This document shows positions 2,892 to 46,365 of a stretch of DNA of 48,831 nt, in pieces (the stretch's first letter is position 1; the number at the start of each line of letters is the position of its first letter). The stretch is from Deltaproteobacteria bacterium (GTDB lineage Bacteria > Desulfobacterota > GWC2-55-46 > S146-80): NCBI GenBank assembly GCA_015492305.1, contig WGFJ01000023.1, positions 1 through 48,831 on the forward strand. The letters are read 5' to 3'. The position numbers and the translations under genes were made by a program. Under the pieces are notes generated by a model, which was given only the letters and a program-made list of their open reading frames with translations, did no database searches and had not been told where the DNA came from.

Positions 2892-2904
2892 AAAGGAGGA
2901 GAAC

Positions 2905-5093: not shown

Positions 5094-6357
5094 AAGGATA
5101 AGGAAGGGGGAGATCCCGGATGAGGTGAGAAAGGTTGCCTCTGCCGAGGGTCTCGACATAAAGGATCTTACAGAAAAGATCAGGGCAGGGCGGGCAGTGA
5201 TCCCCCGGAACAGGAGGCACACTTCCATCGAGCCCCTTGGTATAGGGGAGGGCCTGAGGACGAAGATAAATGCCAACATCGGTTCTTCAGAGGACAGGGT
5301 TGATGTGGGAGAGGAGTTGAAGAAGCTTTCCGTTGCCGTTGATGCAGGGGCAGATACGGTTATGGATCTCAGCACAGGGGGTGAGATAGACCTCATAAGG
5401 AAGGAGATAATAGGGGCATCCCCTGTCCCTGTGGGAACGGTGCCCATCTACCAGGCGGCCCTTGAGGTCACAAGGCAGGGAAGGTCCTTTGTGGATATGG
5501 ACGAAGAGGAACTCTTTGAGACCATTGAGAGACACGGAGAGGACGGGGTGGACTTCATAACCGTCCACTGCGGCGTCACAAGGGCAAGCCTTGAGCGGTT
5601 GAGGAAGGAAGGGAGGGTCCTCGGGATAGTGAGCCGTGGAGGGGCCCTGACAGCGGAGTGGATGGAGAAGACCGGGAAGGAGAACCCCCTCTACGAGAAC
5701 TTCGACAGGCTCCTCAAGATAGCAAAGCGCTTTGACATGACCCTGAGCCTTGGTGATGGCCTGAGGCCTGGCTGTCTTGCCGATGCCACTGACAGGTGCC
5801 AGATAGAAGAGCTCATCACCCTCGGTGAACTGGCAAAGAAGGCCCTTGAGGAAGGGGTTCAGGTCATTGTGGAGGGGCCCGGTCATCTTCCCATAACCCA
5901 CATAGAGAGGAACATAAGGCTTCAGAAGGACCTATGCAACGGTGCTCCCTTCTATGTCCTCGGTCCCCTTGTGACCGACATTGCACCGGGATACGACCAC
6001 ATAACAGCCGCCATAGGAGGGGCCCTTGCAGGTGCCTATGGGGCGGACTTCCTGTGCTATGTTACCCCTACAGAGCACCTCGGACTTCCAGGGGTAGAGG
6101 ATGTGAGGGAGGGTGTCATTGCCTCGAAGATAGCAGCCCATGTGGCTGACATAGCCAAAGGGATAAAGGGTGCCATGGAGAGGGATCTTGCCATGGCAAG
6201 GGCAAGGAAGGCCCTTGACTGGGATGCTCAGATAAGGCTTTCCATAGATCCTGAGAGGTCGAGGAAGATAAGGGAAAGGAGCCTTCCCTCCGATGCCGAG
6301 GTCTGCACCATGTGTGGAAGCCTGTGTGCCATCAAGATATCGAGGTCAACCCTTTAG
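5080..6357 (+). CDS. thiC: phosphomethylpyrimidine synthase (short form)
   Basis: 425 aa with NANIGSS, DTVMDLSTGG, FITVHCGV, VSRGG, GPGH and YVTPTEHLGLP. The C-terminal CTMCGSLCAIK is the CX2CX4C cluster motif of ThiC. Confidence 0.93.
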   Translation: MTLIERIRKGEIPDEVRKVASAEGLDIKDLTEKIRAGRAVIPRNRRHTSIEPLGIGEGLRTKINANIGSSEDRVDVGEELKKLSVAVDAGADTVMDLSTGGEIDLIRKEIIGASPVPVGTVPIYQAALEVTRQGRSFVDMDEEELFETIERHGEDGVDFITVHCGVTRASLERLRKEGRVLGIVSRGGALTAEWMEKTGKENPLYENFDRLLKIAKRFDMTLSLGDGLRPGCLADATDRCQIEELITLGELAKKALEEGVQVIVEGPGHLPITHIERNIRLQKDLCNGAPFYVLGPLVTDIAPGYDHITAAIGGALAGAYGADFLCYVTPTEHLGLPGVEDVREGVIASKIAAHVADIAKGIKGAMERDLAMARARKALDWDAQIRLSIDPERSRKIRERSLPSDAEVCTMCGSLCAIKISRSTL

Positions 6358-7774
6358 AGTGGAAGACGACGACCGTGTTCTTCCCCTTGTTCTTGGCAGC
6401 GTAAAGGGCCTTGTCGGCATTTGTGATGAGGTCGTGGGAATTCCTCACCGTCTTGTCCGGGTATGAGGCCACCCCTATACTTACCGTGACCCCTTTGCCA
6501 GGGGGTAGATCATCAAAGGAGAGGTCCTCAATTACCTGCCGTATCCTCTCCGCCTCCCTCACGGCCCCCTGGAGGTCTGTGTGGGGCATGAGGATAACGA
6601 ACTCTTCACCGCCGTAACGGGCAAAGACATCCGTCTTCCTTATGGCCTTCTTTACGGCAAGGGCCATTTCCTTCAGCACCTTGTCCCCTGTAAGGTGGCC
6701 ATAGGTATCGTTTATGCTTTTGAAGTTGTCTATGTCCATCATGAGACAGGAAAGGTTGAGGCCGTATCTCTCGGCCCTTCCGAACTCCTCATCGAGTCTC
6801 ACGTAGAAGTAGCTGTGGTTGAAGGTGTCTGTGAGCTGGTCGGTAATGGCCAGGATCTCAAGCCGCCTCTTTTCCTCTTCCACCATCTTGTAAAGGTAGG
6901 CGTTCCTCAGGGCGTAGAATGAGGCATTCGCCACCACCTGGCAGAAGTTTATCTCCTGTTTTGTGAAGCTCCTTGCCCGTCTCCTCACCCTCAGGAAGAG
7001 GGTTCCAAGGACCTCTTCCTCCCAGAAGATAGGCACTACAAGGACGCTTACCCCGTGGAGGTCCTTTATAAGCTCCTTTACCTCCTTCATCAGGGGATGG
7101 TCGGAGAGGTCGTCTATTACAAGCGCCTCCTTTGTCTCAAGGACCCTTTTGATCTCCGGGTACCTTTTCAGGTCTATGGCAAGGCCCTTTATATCTGGAT
7201 TGTCATGGGAGGCCATTATGTATCCCATGTCCTTTACCTTATCGATGAGTATGATGGAAGACCTCTCTGCACTGGTGATCTCTGCAACCCTCTTTACAAT
7301 GGTGTCGAGGATCTCGTTTGTGTTCAGGGTGGCCGAAAGGGACCGGGTGATCTCCAGTGTGATGGCAAGGTTTCTCCTGTCCTCCTCCAGTTCCAGAAAC
7401 ATCTTCCTTGCCCTGAGCTGGGAACGTAGCCTTGCCGTCAGTTCCATCTCATCGATGGGTTTGGCAACAAAGTCATCCGCCCCGAGGTTGAGGGCCTTGG
7501 CCACGGTCCTTTTATCATCCTTTGAGGATATGGCTATTATCGGGACCCCTTTCAGTTCATCCATGCTCCTGAGGATCCTTACAACCTCAAGACCATCCAG
7601 GGTGGGCATCACCAGGTCAAGGAGTATGGCATCTGGACGGACCCTTCTTACCGATTTTATTGCCTCTTCTCCACTCTTGGTCTGCCATACCCTGTAACCA
7701 CAGGATCCAAGGAAGCTGGCAAGGTATTCCCTGCAGACCTGATCGTCATCAACGATAAGTATATTCTCCCCCAT
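6332..7774 (-). CDS. response-regulator receiver - GAF - GGDEF diguanylate cyclase
   Basis: The receiver shows ILIVDDD...DAILLDLVMPTLDG...KP, followed by a central GAF-like region. The C-terminus reads RKTDVFARYGGEEF, an RxxD I-site 5 residues before GGEEF. ATG 7774 with GGAGGG RBS is preferred over TTG 7801. The 3' end overlaps thiC convergently. Confidence 0.88.
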   Translation of the reverse strand: MGENILIVDDDQVCREYLASFLGSCGYRVWQTKSGEEAIKSVRRVRPDAILLDLVMPTLDGLEVVRILRSMDELKGVPIIAISSKDDKRTVAKALNLGADDFVAKPIDEMELTARLRSQLRARKMFLELEEDRRNLAITLEITRSLSATLNTNEILDTIVKRVAEITSAERSSIILIDKVKDMGYIMASHDNPDIKGLAIDLKRYPEIKRVLETKEALVIDDLSDHPLMKEVKELIKDLHGVSVLVVPIFWEEEVLGTLFLRVRRRARSFTKQEINFCQVVANASFYALRNAYLYKMVEEEKRRLEILAITDQLTDTFNHSYFYVRLDEEFGRAERYGLNLSCLMMDIDNFKSINDTYGHLTGDKVLKEMALAVKKAIRKTDVFARYGGEEFVILMPHTDLQGAVREAERIRQVIEDLSFDDLPPGKGVTVSIGVASYPDKTVRNSHDLITNADKALYAAKNKGKNTVVVFHSKGLTSIS

Positions 7775-7794
7775 TGTCCCTCCATCCCTTTGGC

Positions 7795-7823
7795 TTGACA
7801 ATAGATCGGTATATCTTTAAGAT
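7795..7823 (+). promoter_or_regulatory. candidate promoter for tRNA-Thr
   Basis: TTGACA (7795-7800), 17-nt spacer, TAAGAT (7818-7823), about 35 nt upstream of the tRNA. Confidence 0.45.
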
Positions 7824-7850
7824 AATAGCAGCAAATTTGCTGTGATGCAA
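7822..7850 (-). promoter_or_regulatory. candidate promoter for the diguanylate cyclase gene, with a palindrome in the spacer
   Basis: Minus strand reads TTGCAT (7850-7845), 17-nt spacer, TATTAT (7827-7822). The spacer contains the perfect 14-bp palindrome CAGCAAATTTGCTG (7829-7842). Confidence 0.45.
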
Positions 7851-7858
7851 GTCCATAC

Positions 7859-7930
7859 GCCGGTGTAGCTCAGCGGTAGAGCAGCTGATTCGTAATCAGC
7901 AGGTCAGGGGTTCGAATCCCCTCACCGGCT
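7859..7930 (+). tRNA. tRNA-Thr (anticodon CGU)
   Basis: The cloverleaf reads acceptor GCCGGTG/CACCGGC, D arm GCTC-AGCGGTA-GAGC, anticodon arm GCTGA-TTCGTAA-TCAGC, and T arm AGGGG-TTCGAAT-CCCCT. No CCA is encoded. Confidence 0.93.
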
Positions 7931-7932
7931 TC
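7886..7932 (+). repeat. attL core (part of the functional tRNA-Thr)
   Basis: TGATTCGTAATCAGCAGGTCAGGGGTTCGAATCCCCTCACCGGCTTC. It runs from the anticodon stem to 2 nt past the discriminator base. Confidence 0.85.
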
Positions 7933-7972
7933 AAGGAAAATCAAGGACTTACAGGTTTTGCTCATTTCCTTT

Positions 7973-9043
7973 TCATCCCTGATTGTGAAGTAATTGTGAA
8001 GTAGACTTTCCGGTCAGGATCCTTTCCAGTTCATTAACGGCATTTCTTTTGTGGGAAGGTGCAAGGTGGGCATACCGGAGGGTCATGGTGAGGGATTTGT
8101 GGCCAAGGAGTTCCTTTACTGTTGTAAGGTCTATTCCTGCCATGACAAGGTGAGAGGCAAAGGTGTGCCTCAGGTCATGGAATCTGAAGTCCTTTATCCC
8201 TGCCCTTCTCAATGCTGATTGGAAGGACTTCTTTACATCCCCGTATGGCTTTCCAGTTTCAGGGTTTATGAAGACATAGGGATTTTCTCTACCTCTTTCT
8301 ATCCTTCTTGGTATGCTGTGGAAGACTTCCTTTAGGGTCTGGTTTATCGGTATCTCCCTCCTCTCTCCATTCTTTGTCCTCTCAAGCAGGATAAACCCAT
8401 GCTTGAGATCCACCTGATCCCATCTAAGGGAGAGGATCTCTCCCTTCCTCATGCCTGTATTGAGGGCAGTGATGACTATGGGCCTCAGGTGGGGATCACA
8501 GGCATCTATGAGTTTCTGACATTCCTCCCGGGTCAGGTATCTGAGCCTTCTATTGTGTTCTGGGATGAGTTTTACCTTCCTTACCCTCTTAAGGACCTCT
8601 TCCTCTACCATCTCCCACTCAACGGCCTTTCTCAGCATGTGTTTTAAGGTGGCAAGATGCCTGTTTACCGTTGCAGGTTTGCAGGTCTTGAGTTTTTCTG
8701 TCTGCCACTCCTCCACAAGCCTTACCGTAAAACCCCTTAAGGGAAGGTTGCCAAAGGCATGGAGGAGATGGAGGACAAAACCTCTCTTGCTTCTATAAGA
8801 CCTCTGCCTTTCACACCACTTAAGATAGTGTTCTGCAAGCTCACTGAATGTATGATTGCCTATCCTTTTGACCAGGGCAGGGTCTTTGCCCTCCATCACT
8901 TCCTTTTTCCTCTGGATGAGGAGGGCCTGGGCCTCTTTCAGGGATGTGGACCCGGATGATTCACGCCTTACCCTACCATCAGGACCTGCATAGCAGATCC
9001 AGTAGATCCTCCCTCTCTTATAGATCCCTTTATGTTTTGCCAT
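7973..9043 (-). CDS. tyrosine recombinase / phage-type integrase
   Basis: Begins MAKHKGIYKRGRIYWICY... Catalytic pattern is TGMRKGE (R), HDLRHTFAS (HxxR), LLGH and RYAHL (Y). ATG 9043 with AAGGAGGAGG RBS is preferred over the track start at 9082. Confidence 0.9.
   Translation of the reverse strand: MAKHKGIYKRGRIYWICYAGPDGRVRRESSGSTSLKEAQALLIQRKKEVMEGKDPALVKRIGNHTFSELAEHYLKWCERQRSYRSKRGFVLHLLHAFGNLPLRGFTVRLVEEWQTEKLKTCKPATVNRHLATLKHMLRKAVEWEMVEEEVLKRVRKVKLIPEHNRRLRYLTREECQKLIDACDPHLRPIVITALNTGMRKGEILSLRWDQVDLKHGFILLERTKNGERREIPINQTLKEVFHSIPRRIERGRENPYVFINPETGKPYGDVKKSFQSALRRAGIKDFRFHDLRHTFASHLVMAGIDLTTVKELLGHKSLTMTLRYAHLAPSHKRNAVNELERILTGKSTSQLLHNQG
7977..8004 (+). repeat. terminal repeat copy 1 (tandem ATTGTGAAGTA x2)
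   Basis: CCCTgATTGTGAAGTAATTGTGAAGTAG. It overlaps the integrase 3' end. A 23-nt core identical to this recurs at 14597-14619. Confidence 0.8.
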
Positions 9044-9044
9044 G

Positions 9045-9179
9045 TTAGACCTCCTCCTTAACCGCCTCTGCAAGGATCTCAATCACAAGCTCCCTCAAGG
9101 TCTTCCCCTCCTTCACAGCCCTTATCTTAAGGGCCCTGTAGACATCATCGGGGAAGTTCTTAATGCTCAACACGGCCAT
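9045..9179 (-). CDS. ribbon-helix-helix (Arc/MetJ-like, antitoxin-like) protein, 44 aa
   Basis: Not in the ORF track (under 60 aa). Sequence is MAVLSIKNFPDDVYRALKIRAVKEGKTLRELVIEILAEAVKEEV. A strong RBS AAGGAGGTGA lies 5 nt upstream of ATG 9179. Its TAA is 1 nt from the integrase ATG (TAACATG). Confidence 0.7.
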   Translation of the reverse strand: MAVLSIKNFPDDVYRALKIRAVKEGKTLRELVIEILAEAVKEEV

Positions 9180-9211
9180 AACATCACCTCCTTTATACAG
9201 AATATACTGCA

Positions 9212-9240
9212 TATTTAGCAAATACTGGATAGACTGTCAA
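9212..9240 (-). promoter_or_regulatory. candidate promoter of the RHH-integrase operon
   Basis: Minus strand reads TTGACA (9240-9235), 17-nt spacer, TAAATA (9217-9212). Confidence 0.4.
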
Positions 9241-9342
9241 GAGGAATGTGAAGGCTAAGGTTCACAATCTGGTTCACACCCACAGAAAAGCCCTTTGTTT
9301 TCAGCATGTTATGGGTAGGAAGATTGACTACAAATCAGCAGG

Positions 9343-9636
9343 TCACTTCCTCCTTATAGGCTGAATCTTCCTCTCTTCGATCCATCGGTCTATGTCTTTC
9401 TTTTTGAATTTTATCCGATTCCCTGCCCTGAAATGGGGTAGCTCGTGCTTGTGCTCGTATACCCAGGATTGAGGGACACCAAGGTAGGAGGCAAGGTCCT
9501 TGACACCAAAGATCTTATCCTCTTCTGCTGTTTTAAACTCCCTGAGAAGCCTTTTGATTATGCCTTCCTCCTGTTCTTTGAAGAGAGGGGAGAGGGCCTC
9601 CTTAAGAAGGTCTTCAAGCATGTTTTTTAGTTCCAT
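9343..9636 (-). CDS. excisionase/AlpA-type helix-turn-helix DNA-binding protein
   Basis: 97 aa. FGVKDLASYLGVPQSWVYEHKHELPHFRAGNRIKFKKKDIDRWIEE matches the Xis/MerR-superfamily HTH pattern (L..YLGVS..T.Y......P....G....F...D...W). Confidence 0.7.
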   Translation of the reverse strand: MELKNMLEDLLKEALSPLFKEQEEGIIKRLLREFKTAEEDKIFGVKDLASYLGVPQSWVYEHKHELPHFRAGNRIKFKKKDIDRWIEERKIQPIRRK

Positions 9637-9914
9637 CTTCTCCCTCCATCAATGACAACCCGATAACAAACAGATGGCAAACCGATGTTCAAAACGCATC
9701 CGGGCAAATCCGATGCATCTATGCTTAATCTCCCTGTCTTAGAGCAAATCTCCGGTCTTAAGGTATTGGCCCTGAAATGGATCTCCGGCCAGTGCCCCTG
9801 CAAGGGCCTTATGGGAGATTGGGGAGAGAAGAGGGGTTTTGTCAGGGGTATCTCCTCCTTTCTTAAGATCCCTGTAAAGATCTCTTTAAGGTGCTTCTTT
9901 TCCATACCCTTCAA
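9627..9914 (-). CDS. doubtful ORF filling the gap between the 226-aa gene and xis
   Basis: 95-codon open frame with a strong internal SD (AAGGAGGAG near 9852-9844). The composition is Pro/Cys/Arg-rich and atypical, and it overlaps both neighbours. Confidence 0.2.
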   Translation of the reverse strand: MKGMEKKHLKEIFTGILRKEEIPLTKPLFSPQSPIRPLQGHWPEIHFRANTLRPEICSKTGRLSIDASDLPGCVLNIGLPSVCYRVVIDGGRRWN

Positions 9915-10566
9915 TCATTTTGTCAAGCTTCCTGTAGAGAATCAAAGTTAGCCAATCCTGGATCTCAAACAGGTCTGCTCCCACACGATGCCTTCTTCTG
10001 TCCTTTCTCACAAACACAGGCATCCCATGCTCTTTGAGTTTTCTGGCAGTGGAGGGGGATACCTGAAGATACTTACATATCCCCTCCCAACCGTAGAGCC
10101 ATGTAGATTCTCCTTTGAAAAAGGCCTTGCGGTCTTTATCGGACCACCTCACCAGTTCCTTGCCATTCCTTACCCACTCATTGAAAAAGGCATCAGGATC
10201 TTCATTGAACAGCCTCACCAGTTCCCTGTTTTTCTTTATCCATTCCTTCTTGACAATCGATATTTCCTCTTCCAGAGTCCTTCCAAAGAGGTTCTTTTCC
10301 ATCTCCTCCACCCAGAGATCTATTCTTGCCTTAAAGGAAATTATAATGGCCTTCCTCCTCATCCAGGATTCATCTATATGGATCACAGGCAGGCCACACC
10401 TCTTCCAGCAGTCTCTTGCCACCTTGACTGATGTCCCGAGGTAGTTGACAATCGACTTCCACCCAAAGAGGATCTCGTCGATAATGACAGGTTCGTTCTG
10501 TATCCTTCTAAGAGCCTCAGGATGAAGAGGTTTTCTGCAGTTAAGCCATGTCCATTTCCCAACCAT
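9886..10566 (-). CDS. hypothetical protein with two HTH-like repeats
   Basis: 226 aa, with its start abutting the upstream stop (TAGATG). There are two similar segments: GWKSIVNYLGTSVKVARDCWKRCGLPV and GWEGICKYLQVSPSTARKLKEHGMPV. Confidence 0.6.
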   Translation of the reverse strand: MVGKWTWLNCRKPLHPEALRRIQNEPVIIDEILFGWKSIVNYLGTSVKVARDCWKRCGLPVIHIDESWMRRKAIIISFKARIDLWVEEMEKNLFGRTLEEEISIVKKEWIKKNRELVRLFNEDPDAFFNEWVRNGKELVRWSDKDRKAFFKGESTWLYGWEGICKYLQVSPSTARKLKEHGMPVFVRKDRRRHRVGADLFEIQDWLTLILYRKLDKMIEGYGKEAP

Positions 10567-10800
10567 CTATTCCCTCCTTTTCCCCTTGCCAGACCTTTCC
10601 AGGAGGTCTATAAGGTCATCGAGAAGGACCCGGATCTCTATGTCTTCCTCTTTGCACCTTTCCCTTAAAGCCATAAGATCTTTGAGAGAACTTTCCTTCA
10701 TTTCCTTCGCTATCTTCCTCAGGAATTTCACAAGCCTCCTTGAGACCCCGCCCTGTCTTTTACCTGACCTGCCCATAGAGCCTTGCAAACCTCCTCTCAA
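10567..10800 (-). CDS. small charged hypothetical protein
   Basis: 77-aa ORF rich in K/R/E that overlaps the preceding ORF. The start is uncertain. Confidence 0.4.
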   Translation of the reverse strand: MRGGLQGSMGRSGKRQGGVSRRLVKFLRKIAKEMKESSLKDLMALRERCKEEDIEIRVLLDDLIDLLERSGKGKRRE

Positions 10801-11200
10801 TGCTTTCCCTCATCCTCTCCAGGTGATATGGCCTTTTCCCTCTCTCCATGTTATCAAGATACTGCAAAAACCTCCTTTCTAACATGATAGCCCTGAAGAG
10901 GGGTTCATGCCTCGTCCTCCTTACCTGGATAAGGATGTAGGACAGACCGTGGCAGTCCCGGCAGAGAAGTCTCTCTGAGAAGGGAGGAAGGTATAGATAC
11001 TCCCTCCTCCTGCCACAGGAAGGGCAGATAAAGTAAGGCCTCTCACCTCCATAATTGCAGGGCAGGGTGGTCAAGGGGATGAGGTCTGCCACAACCCTTC
11101 CCATGATTTCGTATCTGACCACGAGGAAGGGAGGAATCTCCCTCCTTATCCCAAGGTCATGGATGGATAGCCTTCTGCAAAATTCAACACACTCCCTCAT
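10760..11200 (-). CDS. hypothetical zinc-ribbon protein
   Basis: 146 aa. PCNYGGERPYFICPSCGRRREYLYLPPFSERLLCRDCHGLSY provides CxxC...CxxC. Confidence 0.6.
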   Translation of the reverse strand: MRECVEFCRRLSIHDLGIRREIPPFLVVRYEIMGRVVADLIPLTTLPCNYGGERPYFICPSCGRRREYLYLPPFSERLLCRDCHGLSYILIQVRRTRHEPLFRAIMLERRFLQYLDNMERGKRPYHLERMRESIERRFARLYGQVR

Positions 11201-11209
11201 CCTAAAACC

Positions 11210-11728
11210 CTAACAGACCCGTAGAATCCATCCTGAGAAGATCTCTTTCACCTCAAGGATTTTCTCCCTCTCTTGAGGGCTAAGGCCTTTAAACCTTTTC
11301 ACCTCATCCACAGTAAACCAGAGCTCTCCATCCTTTCTCAGATTTTCCATTGTCCTCCTGGAGGGTGCTATATAAATAACCCTACCTCCTCCGCTTCTGA
11401 CCTCTATAACCCTTCCCTCCCTTTTAAGCTCCTCTGCCTTCATTCTGCAAAGCCCGTATGCCTTCCTTGCCTCTTTCACCCATCTTGAGAGGGTGGCTTT
11501 GAAGTCCTCCATGGTTGCCTTCCCTTCAAGGCAGTCCTGCCATACCCTGTTTAGTTCATCTTCTGCCTTTGCAAGGGGTTCATACCTTCCCATCCCACAG
11601 ATCCATCCCATCCTTTCAAAGGCTTCAAGGTAGAGGGATTTGAGGAGGGGTTCAGAAGGATAGGATTCCTTCGAAGCCTTCTTCTCTTCCTCTTCCAAGA
11701 CTCTCAGGGCAATATCAAGATATCCCAC
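11210..11728 (-). CDS. hypothetical protein
   Basis: 172 aa. GTG start with AAGGAGGTGA RBS 7 nt upstream. No motif recognised. Confidence 0.6.
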   Translation of the reverse strand: MGYLDIALRVLEEEEKKASKESYPSEPLLKSLYLEAFERMGWICGMGRYEPLAKAEDELNRVWQDCLEGKATMEDFKATLSRWVKEARKAYGLCRMKAEELKREGRVIEVRSGGGRVIYIAPSRRTMENLRKDGELWFTVDEVKRFKGLSPQEREKILEVKEIFSGWILRVC

Positions 11729-11752
11729 CTGTGATCACCTCCTTGTATGTCT

Positions 11753-11867
11753 TGCACAAAAAGGACATTATGCACAAAAAGTCTTCCCACAAGGATTTGA
11801 GGGATATTTGCTAATAGGCTGCAAATTCTTGCCACAGGCCTTTTTGTGCTTTTTGTGCTTTTGTGTA
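11753..11867. repeat. iteron-like GCACAAAAAG repeats (2 direct, 2-3 inverted)
   Basis: TGCACAAAAAG occurs at 11753-11763 and 11771-11781. CTTTTTGTGC occurs at 11840-11849 and 11849-11858, plus CTTTTGTGTA at 11858-11867. The cluster lies between the primase stop and the next gene's start. Confidence 0.7.
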
Positions 11868-11872
11868 TGCCA

Positions 11873-13828
11873 TCACCGTCTATACCACCTCGTAATGGGT
11901 CTGCCCTTGGTTTCTGTCTTTTTCTTTTTTATCTTTCCCATCCTCTCCAGAGAGGATAGAGTGTCAGTTATTTTCTCAGAAGGAACATGATGTTTAAAAA
12001 ACTTGTAGATTTCCGTCTGTGTCATACCCTCGGGTCTTTCCTTTAGGGCCCTGAGGATTGTGTTTGCTATCCTGTCTCCTGTGGTATCCCTCCATATATA
12101 TCTAACCGAGGCCTCTACATAATCCCAGATAGCCAGGGAGGCCAGGAGGTGTTCTGCCCTGATAGTATCGGACCTATCCAGAAGGGCAAAGAGGGTGGCA
12201 AGCCTTACAACTTGAGCCTCTGCCCTGTTAATAAGGGCTCCAACCAGCCCTGGTTTGCCTTCAGAAAGAACAGGGTAGACCTCTTTCCATATCTTTTTAG
12301 CCTCCTCATCCATCTCAACCCTGAATTCTTCCCTTTCCCTGATCCATCTTAAGGTTTCCTTCAGCCCCTCAATGATGGGCCCCATATCAGGCTTCCCTCC
12401 TCCAAAGGGAAGGCATTTTGATCTCTTTACCAGGGCAAAGAGGAAGCGGTTGGCAAATCCGTTGGCCATCTCTGTCTCCTGAAGATGCCTTTTGAGTTCC
12501 TCCATGGTTATATGGCCAACGATGGAGAGATGGGCCCCTGTGGCTTTGGTTTTACTGTGTTTTGTTAGTGTGGCCAGATCCCCACTATCCCATGCCCTTC
12601 TGATGATGGGTGAGAGGGTGTTTCCTTCCCTGGAGAGGACCTTCAGCACAGAGGCAAACTCACTTTCCACAATGCACAGCCTTTTATCTTTTATCCCCTC
12701 ATCTTCAACCTCTTCTCCTTCCTTTGTTTTTTTGATTATTGGGTCTCTAACATGCCATATCAGCCCCTCCCCTGAGGAGAGTCCCTCTTCTGTTTTAAGG
12801 CAAGAATCTACCTCATAGAGGATCTTTTTCACCCAACCCCAGGAAGACCCCTTCCTGCCTTTAGAAGTTTCTCCCACCAGAAGGAGATAAAGGTTTGGAT
12901 AATGACGGTCGGCCTCAACCCTGTAAAAGCCATGTCTGCCAAGGAGGCACCCTGCACCTGCCAGAAACTGGAGGAGAAGACCCACAGGGTGGGCCTCTGT
13001 ATGGGGTTCTACAGTCTTAACAAACCTTCCAGCAATCCCATAGAAGGCCTCTTCCCTTATAGTGGGCCATTGATCCTTTTCTTCTTCAAAGGAGGGAAGA
13101 GGTTGAGACAGAAGGTCATCAAGAGGGATCTCCTTCAATGCCATAAACTTATCTATGGAATGGTGGCAGAGGTAATCATCAAGGCCTTTGAGAGGACCCT
13201 GAGGAAGCTCCTTGATGGTTACTATGGCTCCCCTCTCCCTTAGTTTCTGCCCTAACCGTGTAACAGCCTGCACAAGGTTTTTCCTGTAACCTCCTCCATT
13301 CTTCCAGTCGTTATCAGGGATGATGATGACCTTCCTTTCTTTAAGCTCAATGAGATCGAAATCGGGGATGAGTTCCTCCTCTCCCTCCTTCTTCCAGTTC
13401 CATAGCCCCCCTATACCTATGCAGGGAAGGCCCTCCTGAATGGCCTTGAGGGTTTTCTTTTCGCCCTCGGTGATATAAAGAGGGGTGGAGGTATCCTTTA
13501 AAAGGCCTCGGCTCCTGTGAGGTATGTATAGGTGAGGAGGAGTATCTTTGGGCTGTAGGTATTTGGGTTTGTCAGGATACCCATCTTTATAGAATGGCTT
13601 ATACCTTTCAAATCCATCCATGCCAGGATATGGAAAAGCAAGGAGGGAAGCAACACCTTTAGGGTTCCATCCTAACTTTCTGGGAATATCCTGGGGACGG
13701 ACGGAGTAGATCCCTGCCTCCTTTATGGTTTCCTCAGAGAGGCCCGATCTTTTGAGGTCTTCAAGGTGTCGGGAGTCTAAATTTGATTGACATTCACGGC
13801 TGAAAGATAGTATATGTGTGTTAGACAT
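11873..13828 (-). CDS. Toprim primase / P-loop helicase-like replication protein
   Basis: Toprim-like LYITEGEKKTLKA and VIIIPDNDW, then a central LLLVGETSKGRKGSS. The C-terminal tail is winged-helix-like (MTQTEIYKFF...LERMGKIKKKK). ATG 13828 with AAGAGGA RBS is preferred over 13879. By recall it resembles DUF3854/DUF3987-type proteins of integrative elements. Confidence 0.75.
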   Translation of the reverse strand: MSNTHILSFSRECQSNLDSRHLEDLKRSGLSEETIKEAGIYSVRPQDIPRKLGWNPKGVASLLAFPYPGMDGFERYKPFYKDGYPDKPKYLQPKDTPPHLYIPHRSRGLLKDTSTPLYITEGEKKTLKAIQEGLPCIGIGGLWNWKKEGEEELIPDFDLIELKERKVIIIPDNDWKNGGGYRKNLVQAVTRLGQKLRERGAIVTIKELPQGPLKGLDDYLCHHSIDKFMALKEIPLDDLLSQPLPSFEEEKDQWPTIREEAFYGIAGRFVKTVEPHTEAHPVGLLLQFLAGAGCLLGRHGFYRVEADRHYPNLYLLLVGETSKGRKGSSWGWVKKILYEVDSCLKTEEGLSSGEGLIWHVRDPIIKKTKEGEEVEDEGIKDKRLCIVESEFASVLKVLSREGNTLSPIIRRAWDSGDLATLTKHSKTKATGAHLSIVGHITMEELKRHLQETEMANGFANRFLFALVKRSKCLPFGGGKPDMGPIIEGLKETLRWIREREEFRVEMDEEAKKIWKEVYPVLSEGKPGLVGALINRAEAQVVRLATLFALLDRSDTIRAEHLLASLAIWDYVEASVRYIWRDTTGDRIANTILRALKERPEGMTQTEIYKFFKHHVPSEKITDTLSSLERMGKIKKKKTETKGRPITRWYRR

Positions 13829-13880
13829 TGTATCCTCTTTAACGCAGGGTCCCAGCCCTGCGTTTCTATTTTGGGCCAAA

Positions 13881-22927: not shown

Positions 22928-23002
<75 letters not shown>

Positions 23003-23047
23003 GTGAAATCAAGGTCTTTAAAACTACCGCTATAATCTTATATAATC

Positions 23048-23179
23048 CTATCTCCTTCTCCTATTTTCTTCCTGTAAAGGCGTTAGGGGTCCTGTGAGTC
23101 TGTTGCCTACAGGGTCGTAGGTGAAGGTCTCTGCCCTTTTCTCCTGCTCTTTGTTTTTGCTCTTTTTCCTTTCTATAAA
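23048..23179 (-). pseudogene. start-less fragment of an RHS core
   Basis: The frame opens directly after the immunity-gene stop and has no start codon. It translates ...ERKKSKNKEQEKRAETFTYDPVGNRLTGPLTPLQEENRRRR*. By my alignment, 23091-23135 matches 24697-24741 of the intact gene at 38 of 45 positions. Confidence 0.65.
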
Positions 23180-23578
23180 TCATACACTTACCTGATTTTT
23201 TAATTTTCTTGCCAAATATACACCTATACTCAAAAAGAGATAAATATCCACTAACTCAAGAAAATAACTAATGGAAAAGTCAAAAAAGAGTAAGGAAAAA
23301 GGTATCACACAAATATAACCTACTAAGTACTCTTTATCTTTTGCAATTAATCCAATAAATATCCCTGTAACAATGGATATGAAGGGGAAAAGAGCTATTT
23401 GATATAAGATATTTACTTCTTGGAATAACTTAATAAGTTCATCTTCTCTAAAATCCCCTTTTGCAAATTTACTGAAAGGTTCAATATCAAAATTGACCAG
23501 AATAAAACCAATTATAGCCATACATAAAAAAGGAACCATGATTCCTAATATTATGGCTAATGTATTTCTCATTTCCAT
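23180..23578 (-). CDS. four-TM membrane protein, candidate RHS immunity protein
   Basis: 132 aa, with ATG 4 nt after the RHS stop. It has four hydrophobic helices: LAIILGIMVPFLCMAIIGFILV, ILYQIALFPFISIVTGIFIGLIA, LVGYICVIPFSLLFF and IYLFLSIGVYLA. The codon usage is strongly AT-rich. Confidence 0.6.
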   Translation of the reverse strand: MEMRNTLAIILGIMVPFLCMAIIGFILVNFDIEPFSKFAKGDFREDELIKLFQEVNILYQIALFPFISIVTGIFIGLIAKDKEYLVGYICVIPFSLLFFDFSISYFLELVDIYLFLSIGVYLARKLKNQVSV

Positions 23579-23582
23579 TTAC

Positions 23583-26500
23583 TTATTTAACAAAAGGAGA
23601 GGGTTTCCCTTTCGGAACAAAAGCACATTTACTGCAATATTCTAATTGTCTTTGACATGCTTCTATATTTCTAAAACATTCATTAAAGAGCTCTCTACTA
23701 GTTATAATGTTATTATTTTTGATACATTTCTCTTCTTTACACTTTAACCCCTGTTTAGCACATTCTCTCATATAATAGAAACATTTTGCACAGTCTAAAA
23801 TCCAAAATAACCCCTCTGGATCGACTCGATTAATAGGATTATTCCCCACATACACATAAGGATTCAAACTCTGTGGATTCAGCATCAAGGAGGCAAAAGA
23901 AGGACTTATATTATTTACTGTCCCACACCCCCCACAACAGGCCTTCCTCACACTCTCAGGATGGAGTATGGGATCAAAGGATATAAATCTCCCCACCTCT
24001 GGATCATAATACCTTGCCCTGTAGTAGTAGAGGCCAATCTCCTTATCCCATTCCCTTCCTGTAAAGGTATAGGGCTGTTTAACCTTATGTCCTCTGTGCT
24101 TCATATTACCAAAGGAATCGTATTCGTATCTCTGCACTATTCTGCCTTTATAATCAGTCAGGGCAGTGATACTTCCAAGGCCATCGGCATGGTAGTAATA
24201 CACCCTGCCTTTCTGCTCTATTGCTAATGGCTCATCTACTCCCGGGCCATGTAGGTATTTGATAACATATTGAGAGTCCCTGTCTTTGTGATGTTTATTA
24301 TGTCTTCTACCCTGGTGGCCATGGTGACCTTCCCCTTCTTCATGCCCTGAGATGCTTACATACTCAAGAATAATATCCTCATTGTCATATACATAGGTGT
24401 GGGTCTTAACTTCTTTAACTTCTCCATCTTCTATATCTTCAATCTCCTTCTCTATCCTCCTTCCAAATGGATCATACTTGAATGTAACAACCCTGATCTC
24501 ATCTTCTTCCTCTTTGACTACCTTGATTAACCTGTTCTCATAATCATAGCTATAAGTCCATATCTTCTCCTCTCCGTCATCATCAACCTCTGTCTTCCTT
24601 ATGAGATTTCCGTTTCTGTCATACTCATACAGGTACTCTCTGTCCTCTGTCAACTGATTGCCCTGGTTGTAAAAATAGTAATCCTTAGACCTTGGCCCTG
24701 TGAGCCTGTTGCCAACCGGGTCGTAGGTGAATACTTCTGCCTTCCCCTCCTTTTCTTTCTCCTTCTTGCCCTTCAACTCCACAGGCAGGGACTGTAAGAG
24801 CCTGTAGATAGCATCATAGGCATAGTCGTATCTCTTATCATCTTCAGTCTTACTCAATCTATTCCCTACCCTGTCATAGGTGTAACTGTATGAAATCACC
24901 TGAGAGAGTATCTCTAAAAGCCTTCCTGATTGGTCATAGTTGTATGTGGTGGTTATACCATTTGGATATGTGAGGGATGTCCTCCTGCCAGAGGCATCGT
25001 AACTGAAACCAAAGCTCCCCATATCAGAGTTTATCTGACTAAGCCTGTTGCCTGCATCATAACTGTAGTTTATTACCCTTCCTTCAGGGGTGGTCATCTT
25101 GATCCTGTTTCCTGTGGCATCGTATTCATAGGTTATGGTGTTGCCCCTGGAGTCTGTTACTGTCTTCAGCCTGCCAGTGGCATCATAGGTGAAGGTGTAG
25201 GTGATGTGCTCGTTGCCTGCTGTGATTATATTACCCCTCGCATCATAAGTAAAGGTTGTGGATGTGCCATCTGGATAGGTCTTTTTGATGAGTCTGTTAA
25301 GACTGTCATACCTATAGGTTATGGTGTTTCCTTCTGCATCTGTTTTTGATATGAGGTTTCCTTTTGCATCGTAGGTGTAGGTGGTGGTGTTTCCAAGTGG
25401 GTCTGTTTCTTTTACGAGCCTTCCAAGGATGTCGTATTGATAGGTTGTGGTGTTACCACTGGCATCTGTTATGGATGTGAGCCTGCTACCTCCACCCCCA
25501 CATGATGGACAGCTACTTCCATAGGTGTAGGTGGTTATATTGCCAAGGGCATCTGTTACTTTTATGAGGTTGCCTTCATGGTCATACTCAAAGTAGGTGG
25601 TGTTTCCATTGGCATCGGTTATACTGGTCCTGTTTCCCCTTGCATCGTAGGTGTAGGTGGTGGTGTTTCCACTGGGGTCCGTTACCTTTATGAGCTGGTT
25701 GAGGTTGTTGTATTGAAAGGTCGTTTTTGCTCCTGTTGGGTCTGTGATAGAGAGGAGGTTGCCTACTTGGTCGTATTCAAAGGTGGTGGTGTTACCAGAT
25801 GGGTCTGTTATGGAGGTGATGTTTCCGTATTGATCGTATCCAAAGAGGGTGGTGTTGCCTCTGGGATCGGTTATCTTTACGATGTTTCCCCTCACGTCAT
25901 ACTCATAGGTTGTTACCGCCCCTGTTGGGTCTTTTATAGATGTAAGGTTTCCCCTTTCATCGTAGGTGTATGTGGTTATGTTACCTTCTGGATCTGTTAC
26001 ACTGGTTATCTGTCCATACTGGTTGTAGGTGTAGGTGGTGGTGTTTCCCTGAGGATCTGTAACGGTGAGGAGGTTGCCCTGCTCATCGTATGTATAGGTG
26101 GTTGTGTTGCCAAGGGGATCTGTCTCTGAAAGTAAGTTCCTGTTCTCATCGTAAGTATAGGTGGTTGTATTACCCTGAGGGTCTGTTACCTCGGTGATTA
26201 CATTAAGGGCAGGGTCGTATGTGTACCTCCATATACTCCCATCCCTTTCTGTTACTGTGACAGTGTTATTTACCTGATCATAGTCTATGGTCTTTGTACC
26301 TGATGGATTGGTGGAGGTGATGACCCTTCCCTCACTGTCATAGGTGTAGGTGGTATTGCCCGAAGGGTCTGTCTTTGAGATGAGCCTGCCCCTATCATCA
26401 TAGGTGTACCGATAGGTGTTGCCACCAGGATCGGTTACGGTGATAAGATAGCCCTCTTCACTATAGTGAAGCCTTGTAACCCTGCCCAGAGGATCGGTTA

Positions 26501-27659
26501 TCTCTGTGAGCCTCCCCTCCTCATCGTAACCAAAGGTCACTCTCCTCCCATAGGGATCTGTAACCCTGGTAAGCTTATCACCTGTGTAGCCAAGGGAGGT
26601 TATGTTGTTGTTCCTGTCTATGATCTCAAGGAGCCTGCCACTGGTAAGGTCAAAGTAGTAGACGGTACCTTCCTTGCGGATAAGCTGGTAGTACCCACCT
26701 TCTATGAGGATATAGGAGTGATCCCCTGTGGATGGGTCTGGACGGTAGGTACCTGCACCATCATCTCTGAAGTAGACCCTCCTGCCATCCCCTTCAATGA
26801 GAAGAAGGGTGCCATCAGAAGGCCTGAGAAGGACCATATTATAGGTATGGGTCCAGCCCCTGCCAAGGACTCCTATACGGGTGTCAAGGCTGTTGTAGGA
26901 AAGGGTAAAGGATAGCGTGTCTGTGGTTATGATCTCATGGGAGTGGTAGAGATTGCCCGTTGCAAACCCTGCCATTGAACCCATGTCCGTGCCTGTACAT
27001 GTGGAACCGAGACATGTCTCATCCGTCTCTCCACTACAGTTGTTGTCCTTACCATCGCATATCTCCTGTGCTCCAGGATTTATGGAAGGGTCTGTATCGT
27101 TACAGTCATTGCCCTCCGGACAGCTTACAGGGTCGTATGCAGGATAACCATCACCATCAGCGTCTTTACAACCCTTCTTGCATCCATTAACAATTATAGA
27201 CTCAGCATCATAGCTGGTACAACAACTCACAGCACATAAAGCTGTACAGCAAAAAGCCTGGCCATTAATCCGTATCTCTGCTTCTTCCCTATCGCCTATA
27301 TCTATAAAAAATTTCTTTCTCAGCAAAACATTATATACTATACCCCCCTGAGGCTCCTCCTTCCTCTCCAGAGTCTCTTCCCAGATGACGTATCCACCAT
27401 AAGCATTTAACCTCAGTGCTGGATTAGGATACCAGTAGTGACACTCCAGAGATCCTGCAAGGACAGCTTCCACTTCGTATACACATTTCCCAGGATAATC
27501 CTCAGATCTAACAATACTACTAACACTCACCTCTATTCCCGCAGATACCCCTGCAGGAAGAGATAGGAGGAAGAAAATAGCAAAGAGATAGGCCCAGGAT
27601 AACCTATAATGCCTCCCTTCCATTGCCCTGAAAGGCACATACAGCAAATCACATGCCAT
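23583..27659 (-). CDS. RHS/YD-repeat polymorphic toxin with signal peptide
   Basis: 1358 aa with dozens of YD repeats (TDPxGNTTTYTYDxxGN). The core ends RARYYDPEVGRFISFDP...NNPINRVDPEGL. The N-terminal signal is ...FAIFFLLSLPAGVSA. A MopE-like DADGDGY...CDGKDNNCSGETDE module sits at 27015-27164. The start may be ATG 27623 instead. Confidence 0.9.
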   Translation of the reverse strand: MACDLLYVPFRAMEGRHYRLSWAYLFAIFFLLSLPAGVSAGIEVSVSSIVRSEDYPGKCVYEVEAVLAGSLECHYWYPNPALRLNAYGGYVIWEETLERKEEPQGGIVYNVLLRKKFFIDIGDREEAEIRINGQAFCCTALCAVSCCTSYDAESIIVNGCKKGCKDADGDGYPAYDPVSCPEGNDCNDTDPSINPGAQEICDGKDNNCSGETDETCLGSTCTGTDMGSMAGFATGNLYHSHEIITTDTLSFTLSYNSLDTRIGVLGRGWTHTYNMVLLRPSDGTLLLIEGDGRRVYFRDDGAGTYRPDPSTGDHSYILIEGGYYQLIRKEGTVYYFDLTSGRLLEIIDRNNNITSLGYTGDKLTRVTDPYGRRVTFGYDEEGRLTEITDPLGRVTRLHYSEEGYLITVTDPGGNTYRYTYDDRGRLISKTDPSGNTTYTYDSEGRVITSTNPSGTKTIDYDQVNNTVTVTERDGSIWRYTYDPALNVITEVTDPQGNTTTYTYDENRNLLSETDPLGNTTTYTYDEQGNLLTVTDPQGNTTTYTYNQYGQITSVTDPEGNITTYTYDERGNLTSIKDPTGAVTTYEYDVRGNIVKITDPRGNTTLFGYDQYGNITSITDPSGNTTTFEYDQVGNLLSITDPTGAKTTFQYNNLNQLIKVTDPSGNTTTYTYDARGNRTSITDANGNTTYFEYDHEGNLIKVTDALGNITTYTYGSSCPSCGGGGSRLTSITDASGNTTTYQYDILGRLVKETDPLGNTTTYTYDAKGNLISKTDAEGNTITYRYDSLNRLIKKTYPDGTSTTFTYDARGNIITAGNEHITYTFTYDATGRLKTVTDSRGNTITYEYDATGNRIKMTTPEGRVINYSYDAGNRLSQINSDMGSFGFSYDASGRRTSLTYPNGITTTYNYDQSGRLLEILSQVISYSYTYDRVGNRLSKTEDDKRYDYAYDAIYRLLQSLPVELKGKKEKEKEGKAEVFTYDPVGNRLTGPRSKDYYFYNQGNQLTEDREYLYEYDRNGNLIRKTEVDDDGEEKIWTYSYDYENRLIKVVKEEEDEIRVVTFKYDPFGRRIEKEIEDIEDGEVKEVKTHTYVYDNEDIILEYVSISGHEEGEGHHGHQGRRHNKHHKDRDSQYVIKYLHGPGVDEPLAIEQKGRVYYYHADGLGSITALTDYKGRIVQRYEYDSFGNMKHRGHKVKQPYTFTGREWDKEIGLYYYRARYYDPEVGRFISFDPILHPESVRKACCGGCGTVNNISPSFASLMLNPQSLNPYVYVGNNPINRVDPEGLFWILDCAKCFYYMRECAKQGLKCKEEKCIKNNNIITSRELFNECFRNIEACQRQLEYCSKCAFVPKGKPSPFVK

Positions 27660-42292: not shown

Positions 42293-43993
42293 ATGTCCCT
42301 TATACTCGATAGACTGGGAGAGCTTCTCCTGAAAGAAGGGCTCATAACGAAGGCCCAGCTTGAAAAGGCTGTTGGGGAGCAGAAGAACAAGGGCGGGAAG
42401 ATAGGTTCTAACCTCGTAAAGCTCGGCTTTATAGACGAAAAGACCCTCACTTCATTCCTGAGCAAGCAGTTTGGTGTCCCCCCTGTTGATCTTGCCACAG
42501 AAGAGATAGATCCAGAGGTCCTGAAGCTTGTTCCCGAAAGCATTGCCCAGAAGTACCTCCTCATCCCTGTGAAGAGAAAGGGTTCCACCCTCTATGTGGC
42601 TATGGCCGACCCATCAAACATATTTGCCATAGACGACATAAAGTTTCTTACCGGATACAACGTTGAGCCCCTTGTTGCCTCTGAGATCGCCATAAAGGAG
42701 GCCATCGACAGATACTATGACTCTGCCACCACCCTTGCAGACATAGTTGCCGGCTTTGAAGGTGAGGAGATTGAGGTGGTGGGAGAAGAGGAAGAAGAAG
42801 ATGTGGTCGATCTCAAGAAGGCAACGGAAGAGGCACCTGTAATAAAGCTTGTGAACCTCATCCTCACCGATGCCATCAAGAAGGGGGCAAGTGACATACA
42901 CATAGAGCCCTACGAAAAGGAGATGAGGGTGAGGTTCAGGATCGACGGCGTCCTTCACGAGATCATGAAGCCACCCCTCAAGCTCAAAAATGCCATTGTA
43001 TCACGCATAAAGATCATGTCCCAGCTCGATATTGCTGAAAGGAGGCTTCCCCAGGATGGCAGGATAAAGCTCAAGATGAAGGACAGGGACATAGACTTCA
43101 GGGTCTCCGTCCTTCCCACCATCTTCGGAGAGAAGGTGGTCTTAAGGATCCTGGACAAGTCAAACCTCCAGCTGGACATGAGGAAGCTCGGATTCGAGGA
43201 GAAGGCCCTGAAGGACTTTATGGATGCCATCCACAAGCCGTGGGGGATGGTCCTTGTCACGGGTCCGACAGGAAGCGGCAAGACCACGACCCTATACTCG
43301 GCCCTGACAGAGTTGAACAAGGTAACGGAAAACATCTCCACAGCAGAGGACCCTGTTGAGTATAACCTCCCTGGCATAAACCAGGTTCAGATGCACGAAG
43401 AGATAGGCCTCAACTTTGCCACAGCCCTGAGGGCCTTCCTCAGACAGGACCCTGACATCATCATGGTGGGTGAGATAAGGGACTACGAGACCGCAGAGAT
43501 TGCTGTGAAGGCCGCCCTTACAGGTCATCTCGTCCTTTCCACCCTCCACACAAACGATGCCCCCAGCACTGTAAGCAGACTCCTGAACATGGGCATAGAG
43601 CCCTTCCTCATAGCCTCCTCTGTGAACCTCATACTCGCCCAGAGGCTTGCAAGGAGGATATGCACCGAGTGCAAGGAAGAGGTGAAGGTCCATCCCCAGG
43701 CGCTGATAGATCTGGGGGTCCATCCCGATGAGGCAAAGGATTTTGTGTGCTACAAGGGGAGGGGGTGCCCCAACTGTGGAAATACGGGATACAAGGGAAG
43801 GATCGCCCTCTATGAGGTGATGCCCATGCATGAGGAGCTGAAGGAACTCGTTCTGAACGGTGCCTCTGCAGGGGAGATAAAGAAGGAGGCCGTAAGGCTT
43901 GGCATGAAGACCCTGAGGCAGAGTGGTATAACAAAGGTGAAGGAAGGCACAACGACCATAGAAGAGGTTTTAAGGGTTACAATGGCAGATTGA
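42293..43993 (+). CDS. pilB: type IV pilus assembly ATPase PilB (GspE family) with N-terminal MshEN motifs
   Basis: Walker A is GPTGSGKTTTLY, with AEDPVEY and GEIRD. The tetracysteine is CTEC...CPNC. The N-terminus reads RLGELLLKEGLITKAQLEKAVGEQ-KNKGG-KIGSNLVKLGFIDEKTLTSFLSKQ. Confidence 0.92.
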   Translation: MSLILDRLGELLLKEGLITKAQLEKAVGEQKNKGGKIGSNLVKLGFIDEKTLTSFLSKQFGVPPVDLATEEIDPEVLKLVPESIAQKYLLIPVKRKGSTLYVAMADPSNIFAIDDIKFLTGYNVEPLVASEIAIKEAIDRYYDSATTLADIVAGFEGEEIEVVGEEEEEDVVDLKKATEEAPVIKLVNLILTDAIKKGASDIHIEPYEKEMRVRFRIDGVLHEIMKPPLKLKNAIVSRIKIMSQLDIAERRLPQDGRIKLKMKDRDIDFRVSVLPTIFGEKVVLRILDKSNLQLDMRKLGFEEKALKDFMDAIHKPWGMVLVTGPTGSGKTTTLYSALTELNKVTENISTAEDPVEYNLPGINQVQMHEEIGLNFATALRAFLRQDPDIIMVGEIRDYETAEIAVKAALTGHLVLSTLHTNDAPSTVSRLLNMGIEPFLIASSVNLILAQRLARRICTECKEEVKVHPQALIDLGVHPDEAKDFVCYKGRGCPNCGNTGYKGRIALYEVMPMHEELKELVLNGASAGEIKKEAVRLGMKTLRQSGITKVKEGTTTIEEVLRVTMAD

Positions 43994-44004
43994 TGGAGGT
44001 GTAG

Positions 44005-45105: not shown

Positions 45106-45127
45106 ATCCCGGTTTAAGAGGTGGACC

Positions 45128-46345: not shown

Positions 46346-46365
46346 ACATCCTTTATACCCGGAAG

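Follow-up and report, generated by a model that had tools for sequence, protein, structure and literature searches.

An RHS gene with a cysteine-laddered tip and an adjacent four-helix membrane protein: a candidate toxin/immunity cassette in a deltaproteobacterial genome

Background

Rhs and related YD-repeat toxins of bacteria, exemplified by the Rhs proteins of E. coli, Salmonella and Dickeya and by WapA of B. subtilis, are comprised of a YD shell, a core that ends in a PxxxxDPxGL motif and a variable tip. They have an adjacent small partner gene and downstream orphan modules with rhs-core homology, and an AT-rich tip is carried on a GC-richer core. In the current analysis we describe an rhs locus that shares all these features, encoded in a stretch of 48,831 nucleotides of a Deltaproteobacteria bacterium (assembly GCA_015492305.1, contig WGFJ01000023.1, positions 1 to 48,831) which is referred to as the window throughout. 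The locus has every sequence-testable attribute of an Rhs polymorphic toxin system. It is likely to be a polymorphic toxin gene of the RHS type whose toxin/immunity cassette has been acquired by horizontal exchange; the toxin would be an envelope-acting peptide stapled by disulphides and the immunity protein would reside in the membrane.

The shells of Rhs and Tc proteins are known to cleave themselves after DPxGL and to hold the cargo inside, and the known Rhs cargos are overwhelmingly enzymes acting in the cytoplasm such as nucleases, deaminases and ADP-ribosyltransferases (10.1101/2024.02.26.582050). The locus described here differs from these systems in its cargo, an undescribed and predicted helical hairpin with eight cysteines and about 62-74 residues rather than an enzyme. 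It also has a Sec-dependent-looking N-terminus and no PAAR, VgrG or type VI secretion system (T6SS) context in the window, and the named hosts of its relatives are uncultured anaerobes represented by metagenome-assembled genomes (MAGs) of Syntrophaceae, Geobacteraceae and Brocadiaceae. The system type itself is well understood and uncharacterised Rhs tips are common; what is new is the unnamed family of tips and their candidate immunity proteins.

Small cargos that are apparently non-catalytic and thought to act on membranes have been described behind YD shells. Tox-WTIP, found on RHS scaffolds, has two membrane-spanning helices and the motifs RxxR and W-x-[ST]-I-P (Zhang et al. 2012, PMC3482391). 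In Bacillus inaquosorum a teneurin-like YD shell has a C-terminal cargo that is toxic to E. coli, and renders the cells permeable to propidium iodide, only when it is provided with a signal peptide (PMC13018210). The tip of the window resembles both in size, in its apparent lack of catalysis and in its position. Unlike them it is neither hydrophobic nor predicted to have membrane-spanning helices, and appears to be stapled by cysteines instead. Identity with Tox-WTIP is excluded, since the tip lacks a hydrophobic segment and neither RxxR nor W-TIP occurs in it.

Class II microcins and pore-forming colicins provide an analogy from outside the RHS proteins. They are small secreted peptides of about 60-90 residues, some of them disulphide-bearing, or membrane-acting domains, and are encoded next to polytopic inner-membrane immunity proteins. 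The locus likewise has a small candidate peptide toxin and an adjacent membrane immunity candidate; it differs in that the carrier is an RHS shell and not an ABC exporter or lysis protein, in its cysteine pattern, and in the lack of any detected similarity of sequence or fold. Nested disulphides between antiparallel helices, formed by oxidative folding in compartments other than the cytoplasm, are known from CHCH proteins (twin Cx9C), plant alpha-hairpinins (CxxxC...CxxxC), scorpion kappa-toxins and saposin-like peptides, and several of these families are directed at membranes or channels. The tip differs from these stapled hairpins in that its CxxC-x6-C-x6-C ladder has four rungs in place of the two of Cx9C or Cx3C.

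The RHS gene and its tip

The rhs gene (23583-27659, minus strand), delineated by its translation and by Pfam and NCBIfam matches, encodes a protein of 1358 residues with a signal-peptide-like segment, a MopE-type motif, DUF6531, the YD-repeat shell, the RHS-associated core and a tip of 74 residues in this order. RHS_repeat of Pfam (PF05593) matches the protein in 22 stretches (E-value 5e-167) and TIGR01643 of NCBIfam in 15 (E-value 3e-129), and DUF6531 and Cu-binding_MopE of Pfam also match. The RHS repeat-associated core (residues 1180-1284; 23808-24122, minus strand) has been assigned by TIGR03696 (E-value 6.6e-20), with 105 residues aligned to a model of 76 positions. It contains the motif YYDPEVGRF and, downstream of it, the boundary motif NNPINRVDPEGL of PxxxxDPxGL type, whose DPEGL is encoded at 23808-23822. 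The match to TIGR03696 stops at residue 1284, the leucine of this motif (codon 23808-23810), which is where a sequence-only reading of the window had placed the end of the shell.

The tip (23586-23807, minus strand), the predicted released cargo, has been delineated with the help of its family, its alignments and an AlphaFold2 model and is followed by the stop codon of the rhs gene (23583-23585). Its translation is identical to the 74-residue, nine-cysteine peptide quoted in the sequence-only reading, with the cysteines at tip positions 6, 9, 16, 23, 28, 44, 51, 58 and 61. The nucleotide distance and the membrane character reported in that reading for the adjacent gene have also been reproduced: four nucleotides past the rhs stop codon begins an open reading frame (ORF) of 132 residues (23180-23578, minus strand; first ATG at 23578) with four hydrophobic segments in the Kyte-Doolittle profile. 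Its translation, its hydropathy and the homologues that lie downstream of tip homologues mark it as the candidate cognate immunity gene.

Neither the tip nor the 132-residue protein gives anything usable in Pfam, NCBIfam, PHROGs or PADLOC, and none of ten tip-family members matches a Pfam model. The domain searches returned sub-threshold items only, among them a Nuf2_DHR10-like match (E-value 0.045) and phrog_32817 (E-value 0.002). Sequence-profile searches of the PDB ended in noise, the best matches being TRPC5 for the tip (E-value 0.63) and IraM for the family of the membrane protein (E-value 0.25).

A family of tips paired with a membrane protein

An exhaustive phmmer search with the tip against 1.84e9 representative proteins has identified 11 relatives at E<=1e-3; a word-indexed search of 5.8 billion proteins returned a single relative, a fragment of 51 residues. 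Nine of the 11 lie directly behind the end of an RHS core, marked by DPxGL or by the variants DSKGL, DAEGL, DSSGM and DPTGE, and two of these nine are full-length RHS proteins of 1437 and 1312 residues. The remaining two (P0001 and P0013) are truncated orphan copies, and no scaffold other than RHS carries the tip among the 11. A genome scan added a new Geobacteraceae MAG and a divergent variant in a Brocadiaceae MAG and found a Syntrophaceae MAG again. In the public collections of proteins and contigs that were searched, about 13 members have been seen. A conserved core of about 62 residues is common to thirteen tips from different hosts, which end 5-35 residues past the last cysteine, and eight cysteines are kept down to a tip identity of 32%. 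The tip is a small, previously unnamed family confined to positions behind RHS cores.

A homologue of the membrane protein is encoded directly downstream of the tip in 11 loci, which are those with readable downstream DNA (the window, L002, L009, L011, L012, L013, L016, L018, L020, L023 and L024). In full-length members the partner gene starts 0-72 nucleotides past the stop codon of the tip. The GC content of the paired loci, where computed, is 0.32-0.62, and the named hosts are Syntrophaceae and Geobacteraceae MAGs. When the search was reversed and started from the membrane protein, every locus returned had a tip upstream of it, and occurrence of the 132-residue family without toxin neighbours was not observed in these seeded searches, in which all homologues adjoin a tip. 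This comparison lends support to the proposal, made from the window alone, that the two genes occupy the toxin and immunity slots of an RHS system. The identities of tips and of partners are correlated over 28 pairs that are not independent of each other (Spearman 0.46, p 0.014), and the partner diverges faster, with 30-35% identity where the tips have 51-67%. One truncated orphan tip, on the contig L026 of 869 nucleotides, has no partner.

The divergent Brocadiaceae variant (L019:3199-4616; CAZPUD010000299.1) has its own organisation. Its tip has retained FWPIDCIKCFYY at the N-terminus and SCFKCGWMPTGPKPP at the C-terminus, and the middle is different and longer. The downstream gene encodes an unrelated protein of 129 residues with one N-terminal hydrophobic helix and a tail that, judged by eye, looks like TPR.

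The cysteine ladder and the predicted fold of the tip

Eight of the nine cysteines are invariant or nearly so in the alignment of the family, and C28 is variable. Their spacing is mirror-symmetric (CxxC-x6-C-x6-C ... C-x6-C-x6-CxxC), and the four outer-to-inner pairs each total 67 (6+61, 9+58, 16+51 and 23+44), which is the register predicted for an antiparallel hairpin. Three divergent members of the family have each lost one of these predicted pairs. Only C6 and C61 are missing in P0010, only C9 and C58 in P0011, and C16 and C51 in the tip of L019, where C44 is also shifted by one column in the alignment. By our own arithmetic a random double loss falls on a predicted pair with p = 4/28, and three such losses with a probability of about 1/343. 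As the cysteines disappear in pairs rather than in fours, four independent disulphides are favoured over Zn(Cys)4 sites. The CxxC pairs which the sequence-only reading had pointed out at both ends of the tip are indeed present; they are more plausibly the two outer rungs in a ladder of four than a site of the zinc-ribbon kind.

The AlphaFold2 model based on a 10-sequence alignment (predicted local distance difference test score, pLDDT, 81.4) has a long helix from residue 2 to 31 and return helices at 37-43 and 49-62, with the cysteines on one face of each predicted helix at i, i+7. It supersedes a first model from two sequences (pLDDT 68.7) that had a β-hairpin. The tip is probably an α-helical hairpin stapled by four disulphides. 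Most members of the family have a proline-rich tail after the last cysteine.

Binding of metal is one alternative. The tip would then be a mini-domain with two Zn(Cys)4 sites or similar that acts in the cytoplasm, where it would poison the target by binding one of the components of the cell; protection by the membrane protein would take some other form, such as sequestration of the peptide at the membrane. The named hosts are anaerobes, which makes disulphides less certain, CxxC is found at both ends of the tip, and one member of the family has a weak match to a zinc-ribbon model of Pfam (E-value 0.025). Rhs cargos are, moreover, predicted to be nearly all intracellular (10.1101/2024.02.26.582050). 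However, P0010 keeps C9 and C58 without C6 and C61 and P0011 shows the reverse, so that a four-ligand site made of the two CxxC motifs is broken in both. The i, i+7 positions on predicted helices are not those of zinc knuckles, the cysteine columns have no His or Asp replacements, and the RHS protein has a signal-peptide-like N-terminus and no PAAR. We consider the metal-binding alternative improbable, and the disulphide-stapled hairpin is retained as the preferred fold.

Comparison of this hairpin with known structures agrees with the earlier statement that no known toxin fold is recognisable in the tip. Foldseek searches of the tip models against the PDB (twice) and BFVD returned only generic or designed helical hairpins (E>0.9), and the search with the model of pLDDT 81 returned no toxin, saposin, NK-lysin or CHCH structure. 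Identity with the saposin-like peptides, whose fold has three nested disulphides, has been dropped, as no saposin chain was found by Foldseek and no SapB match in Pfam. CHCH identity (twin Cx9C) is excluded by the Cx2C/Cx6C spacing with four rungs and by the absence of a Pfam CHCH match. The net charge is +6 for the tip of the window and ranges from -4 to +12 in the family, and a cationic antimicrobial peptide has been rejected as a family property on account of this range.

The membrane protein

The four hydrophobic segments of the 132-residue protein lie at about residues 9-27, 61-79, 85-103 and 105-123. As all its homologues begin with M-[RK]-N, translation probably starts at the second ATG (23572) and yields a protein of 130 residues. 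The 28-residue loop 1 is acidic, in contrast to a basic AKDKEY loop and a basic RKLK tail; these charges fit a topology with both termini in the cytoplasm. The charged AK-x-K-EY loop sits between helices 2 and 3. Members of the partner family, of about 125-140 residues, have in common the four helices, an A-[KR]-x-[KR]-[ES]-Y loop and invariant P65, P93 and G119. Weak sub-threshold matches to the DUF3792/TIGR04086 type (PF12670) have been found in four of seven members (best E-value 0.0038) and none in the protein of the window; they could be due to similarity in hydrophobic composition.

Composition of the cassette

The tip and the membrane-protein gene form an AT-rich block (23145-23865; GC content 0.22-0.42 in windows of 45 nucleotides) that begins a few codons upstream of the DPEGL motif. 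In windows of 200 nucleotides the GC content is 0.27-0.30 across 23200-23800 and 0.43-0.55 on either side, so that a sliding plot, suggested in the sequence-only reading, has revealed a large break. The cassette has a GC content of 0.28-0.30, compared with 0.46 in the RHS core and 0.52 in the neighbouring genes. At third codon positions the tip has a GC content of 0.216 and the 132-residue ORF one of 0.235; the RHS core reaches 0.49, and four neighbours, namely the genes of PutA, a glycosyltransferase, adenine deaminase and PEP carboxylase, have 0.58-0.67. The contrast in codon usage that had been noticed by inspection holds in the counts: the cassette uses AAA for 15 of 17 lysines, AGA for 7 of 7 arginines and TTA for 13 of 22 leucines, while AGG accounts for 51-78% of the arginine codons of the RHS core and of the four neighbours, in which CTC is common for leucine. 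A similar drop in GC content occurs in L012 and L013, and the pair has a foreign composition in several hosts.

Orphan arrays and exchange of the cassette

The closest cassette occurs in a different setting. The locus L002 (GCA_964501575.1) has an rhs gene of 1417 residues (5137-9390) that carries a different tip and is followed by a membrane ORF of 181 residues (9371-9916). Behind it are found the 5'-truncated tip copy P0001 and the intact membrane-protein copy P0003, which is 83% identical to that of the window, and after P0003 another rhs core fragment that begins at AEVFTYDPVG. The stretch 23197-23729 (minus strand) of the window, which spans the C-terminal half of the tip and the entire membrane-protein gene, is 88.8% identical in DNA to this orphan cassette (blastn, 545 aligned nucleotides). 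The RHS proteins of the two loci are only 55% identical over about 1200 residues and their tips are unrelated. The difference between the two identities points to a recent lateral movement of the cassette, in line with the horizontally exchanged module that had been proposed from codon usage. The layout of an orphan array is also present in L018, L020 and L009, and in L018 and L020 the neighbouring rhs genes carry other tips.

These arrays bear on the possibility that the tip is no toxin at all, and would serve as a structural plug, an adhesin or a signalling peptide of a surface RHS protein, which the four-helix protein would bind as a receptor, export or anchor. In favour of such a role, RHS cargos are rarely as small as this tip, and no known toxin fold matches it. 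Against this, the pair behaves as expected of a polymorphic-toxin cassette: it has been displaced to orphan positions behind other tips in L002, L018 and L020, related rhs genes hold other tips that each have their own unrelated downstream gene, and the cassette moves horizontally. In L002 the membrane-protein gene is intact and its tip truncated at the 5' end, as for a retained immunity gene. A non-toxin role appears to us a shade less probable even than the binding of metal, and a toxin with its immunity protein remains the preferred identity of the pair.

A vestige of an rhs core (23040-23176, minus strand; direct repeats D8 and D13, tblastn) begins directly past the stop codon of the membrane-protein gene. 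Its first piece, ...KRAETFTYDPVGNRLTGP, matches RHS residues 960-989 (70% identity, E-value 1e-11, tblastn) and its second piece, which is out of frame, residues 1189-1211 (E-value 4e-5, tblastn); about 200 codons have been deleted between the two, in addition to a frameshift. The vestige and the rhs fragment of L002 start at the same core position (AEVFTYDPVG), and on these alignments the vestige is best described as the relic of a further downstream orphan module. The convergent gene of tRNA-Ala(GGC) (22928-23002, plus strand; ARAGORN and Rfam) bounds the rhs array downstream. A search for attachment-site repeats of this tRNA around the rhs island gave none, only YD repeats and the core vestige, and no intrinsic terminator was found downstream of the cassette by a simple scan. 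Homology to the rhs core on the flanks of a tip is known to be a substrate for recombinational tip swapping in Rhs systems.

The vestige, together with the orphan fragments, shows that decay takes place in such arrays, and the tip is short. One could take the cassette for a decaying remnant, with a tip left over from a longer toxin domain and a locus that is no longer functional. This is very improbable, since the same core of about 62 residues is kept by thirteen tips from different hosts, the eight cysteines are conserved at the low identity mentioned above, the ORFs are intact with the closely spaced partner start, and the RHS frame is open over all 1358 residues. The tip is accordingly treated as a complete cargo.

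The RHS-associated core has, just upstream of DPEGL (residues 1234-1284; 23808-23960, minus strand), an insertion of about 29 residues, HPESVRKACCGGCGTVNNISPSFASLMLNPQSL, with a CCGGC cluster. At this site L012 and several other relatives have a short linker and L002 has a different long insert. Given the latter, the exchanged module may begin 5' of DPxGL.

Proposed mode of action and delivery

We infer that the tip is toxic and its partner protective, with a target in the membrane or envelope. An aspartyl autoprotease of the shell would cut after DPEGL and free a peptide of 8.7 kDa (mass computed by hand) inside the shell. The peptide would form an antiparallel helical hairpin with the disulphides C6-C61, C9-C58, C16-C51 and C23-C44. 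Such a fold would require an oxidising compartment outside the cytoplasm, which agrees with the putative Sec-type signal peptide of the RHS protein and with the absence of PAAR, VgrG and T6SS genes from the window. The peptide is too small and has too few conserved polar residues to suggest an enzyme, and would most probably act by binding at the envelope of the target cell or at the periplasmic face of its inner membrane, either to a membrane protein or to the bilayer. The four-helix partner would shield the producer by intercepting the peptide in the membrane, in the way in which pore-forming colicins and class II microcins are countered by immunity proteins embedded there. The rhs-core homology on both sides of the cassette would allow recombination to exchange tips.

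The N-terminal 40 residues of the RHS protein (27540-27659, minus strand) resemble a signal peptide, with a basic n-region, a hydrophobic core at residues 26-38 and then VSA|G, all judged by eye and from hydropathy. The true start of the protein may be Met13 (27623). PAAR, VgrG and T6SS families are absent among the 31 large ORFs across the 48.8-kb window, although the genome may have a T6SS at a distant site, and the locus lacks within the window what marks a T6SS effector, namely a PAAR domain, a VgrG/Rhs adaptor and T6SS genes nearby. Between the putative signal peptide and the MopE motif, residues 41-185 (27100-27560, minus strand) contain a cysteine cluster, FCCTALCAVSCCTS, and have no Pfam match. 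Surface display or the binding of a receptor may be the task of this region.

Several points weigh against the proposed action at the envelope. The tip has no hydrophobic segment (best 19-residue Kyte-Doolittle mean 0.11), and this together with the unconserved net charge leaves a generic cationic, membrane-lytic or pore-forming mechanism unsupported and unlikely; binding to a specific target is more plausible but still a guess. All named hosts live as strict anaerobes, with an uncertain capacity for periplasmic oxidation, and the signal peptide of the RHS protein rests on inspection by eye and hydropathy. Action of Rhs cargos is predicted to take place almost exclusively in the cytoplasm (10.1101/2024.02.26.582050), and a cytoplasmic, reduced and metal-binding form of the tip is possible. 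As for the pairing, the divergent Brocadiaceae tip is followed by a different gene, and the searches with the partner were seeded by words or patterns, from which distant free-standing homologues could escape.

The rhs tip of L002 itself (residues 1350-1417; 9187-9916 together with its partner) has 68 residues after DPHGT with seven cysteines. Two Cx6C motifs are among them, with positions that pair as 14+60 = 21+53, and its partner is the multi-helix membrane ORF of 181 residues. A common superfamily of this tip and that of the window has been rejected (hhalign probability 0.5%), as has homology of the 181-residue partner to the immunity family (hhalign probability 0.1%). In its layout the L002 pair looks like a second family of the same design. 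A wider proposal, offered tentatively and with less confidence than the account of the locus itself, is that the RHS shells of uncultured anaerobes deliver non-enzymatic, disulphide-laddered mini-protein toxins against a membrane target on the periplasmic side, with polytopic immunity proteins, and that the L002 pair is a second such family. Such toxins would resemble microcins or defensins and undergo oxidative folding outside the cytoplasm.

If the interpretation holds, a stapled hairpin of 62-74 residues with a membrane-embedded partner would extend the repertoire of RHS proteins by a mode based on peptide toxins. The pair would be a very small, synthesisable toxin/immunity system for the study of how a cargo leaves the shell and reaches its target without a T6SS. 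Its disulphide map has been predicted from correlated loss of cysteines and is hence directly checkable, and the ladder supported by covariation together with the strict pairing with a membrane protein makes for an unusually clean small system. The practical reach is modest, as the family is rare (about 13 members) and occurs in anaerobes that are hard to culture.

Other features of the window

The sole secretion or fibre machinery seen in the window is a type IV pilus set (42293-47961) with a PilB-like ATPase with MshEN, a PilT-like ATPase, PilC (T2SSF) and a PilS-like sensor kinase; nothing ties it to the RHS protein. The region 7859-13879 encodes tRNA-Thr(CGT) followed by a tyrosine recombinase of the phage integrase family, several ORFs without Pfam matches and a DUF3854/DUF3987 protein, and looks like a small mobile element integrated at the tRNA-Thr gene. 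The region 1141-6357 has a cluster for the biosynthesis of thiamine, with genes of a ThiH-like radical SAM protein, ThiG, ThiE and ThiC and an lgt gene interleaved among them; upstream of the cluster is a TPP riboswitch (Rfam RF00059, 72 bits).

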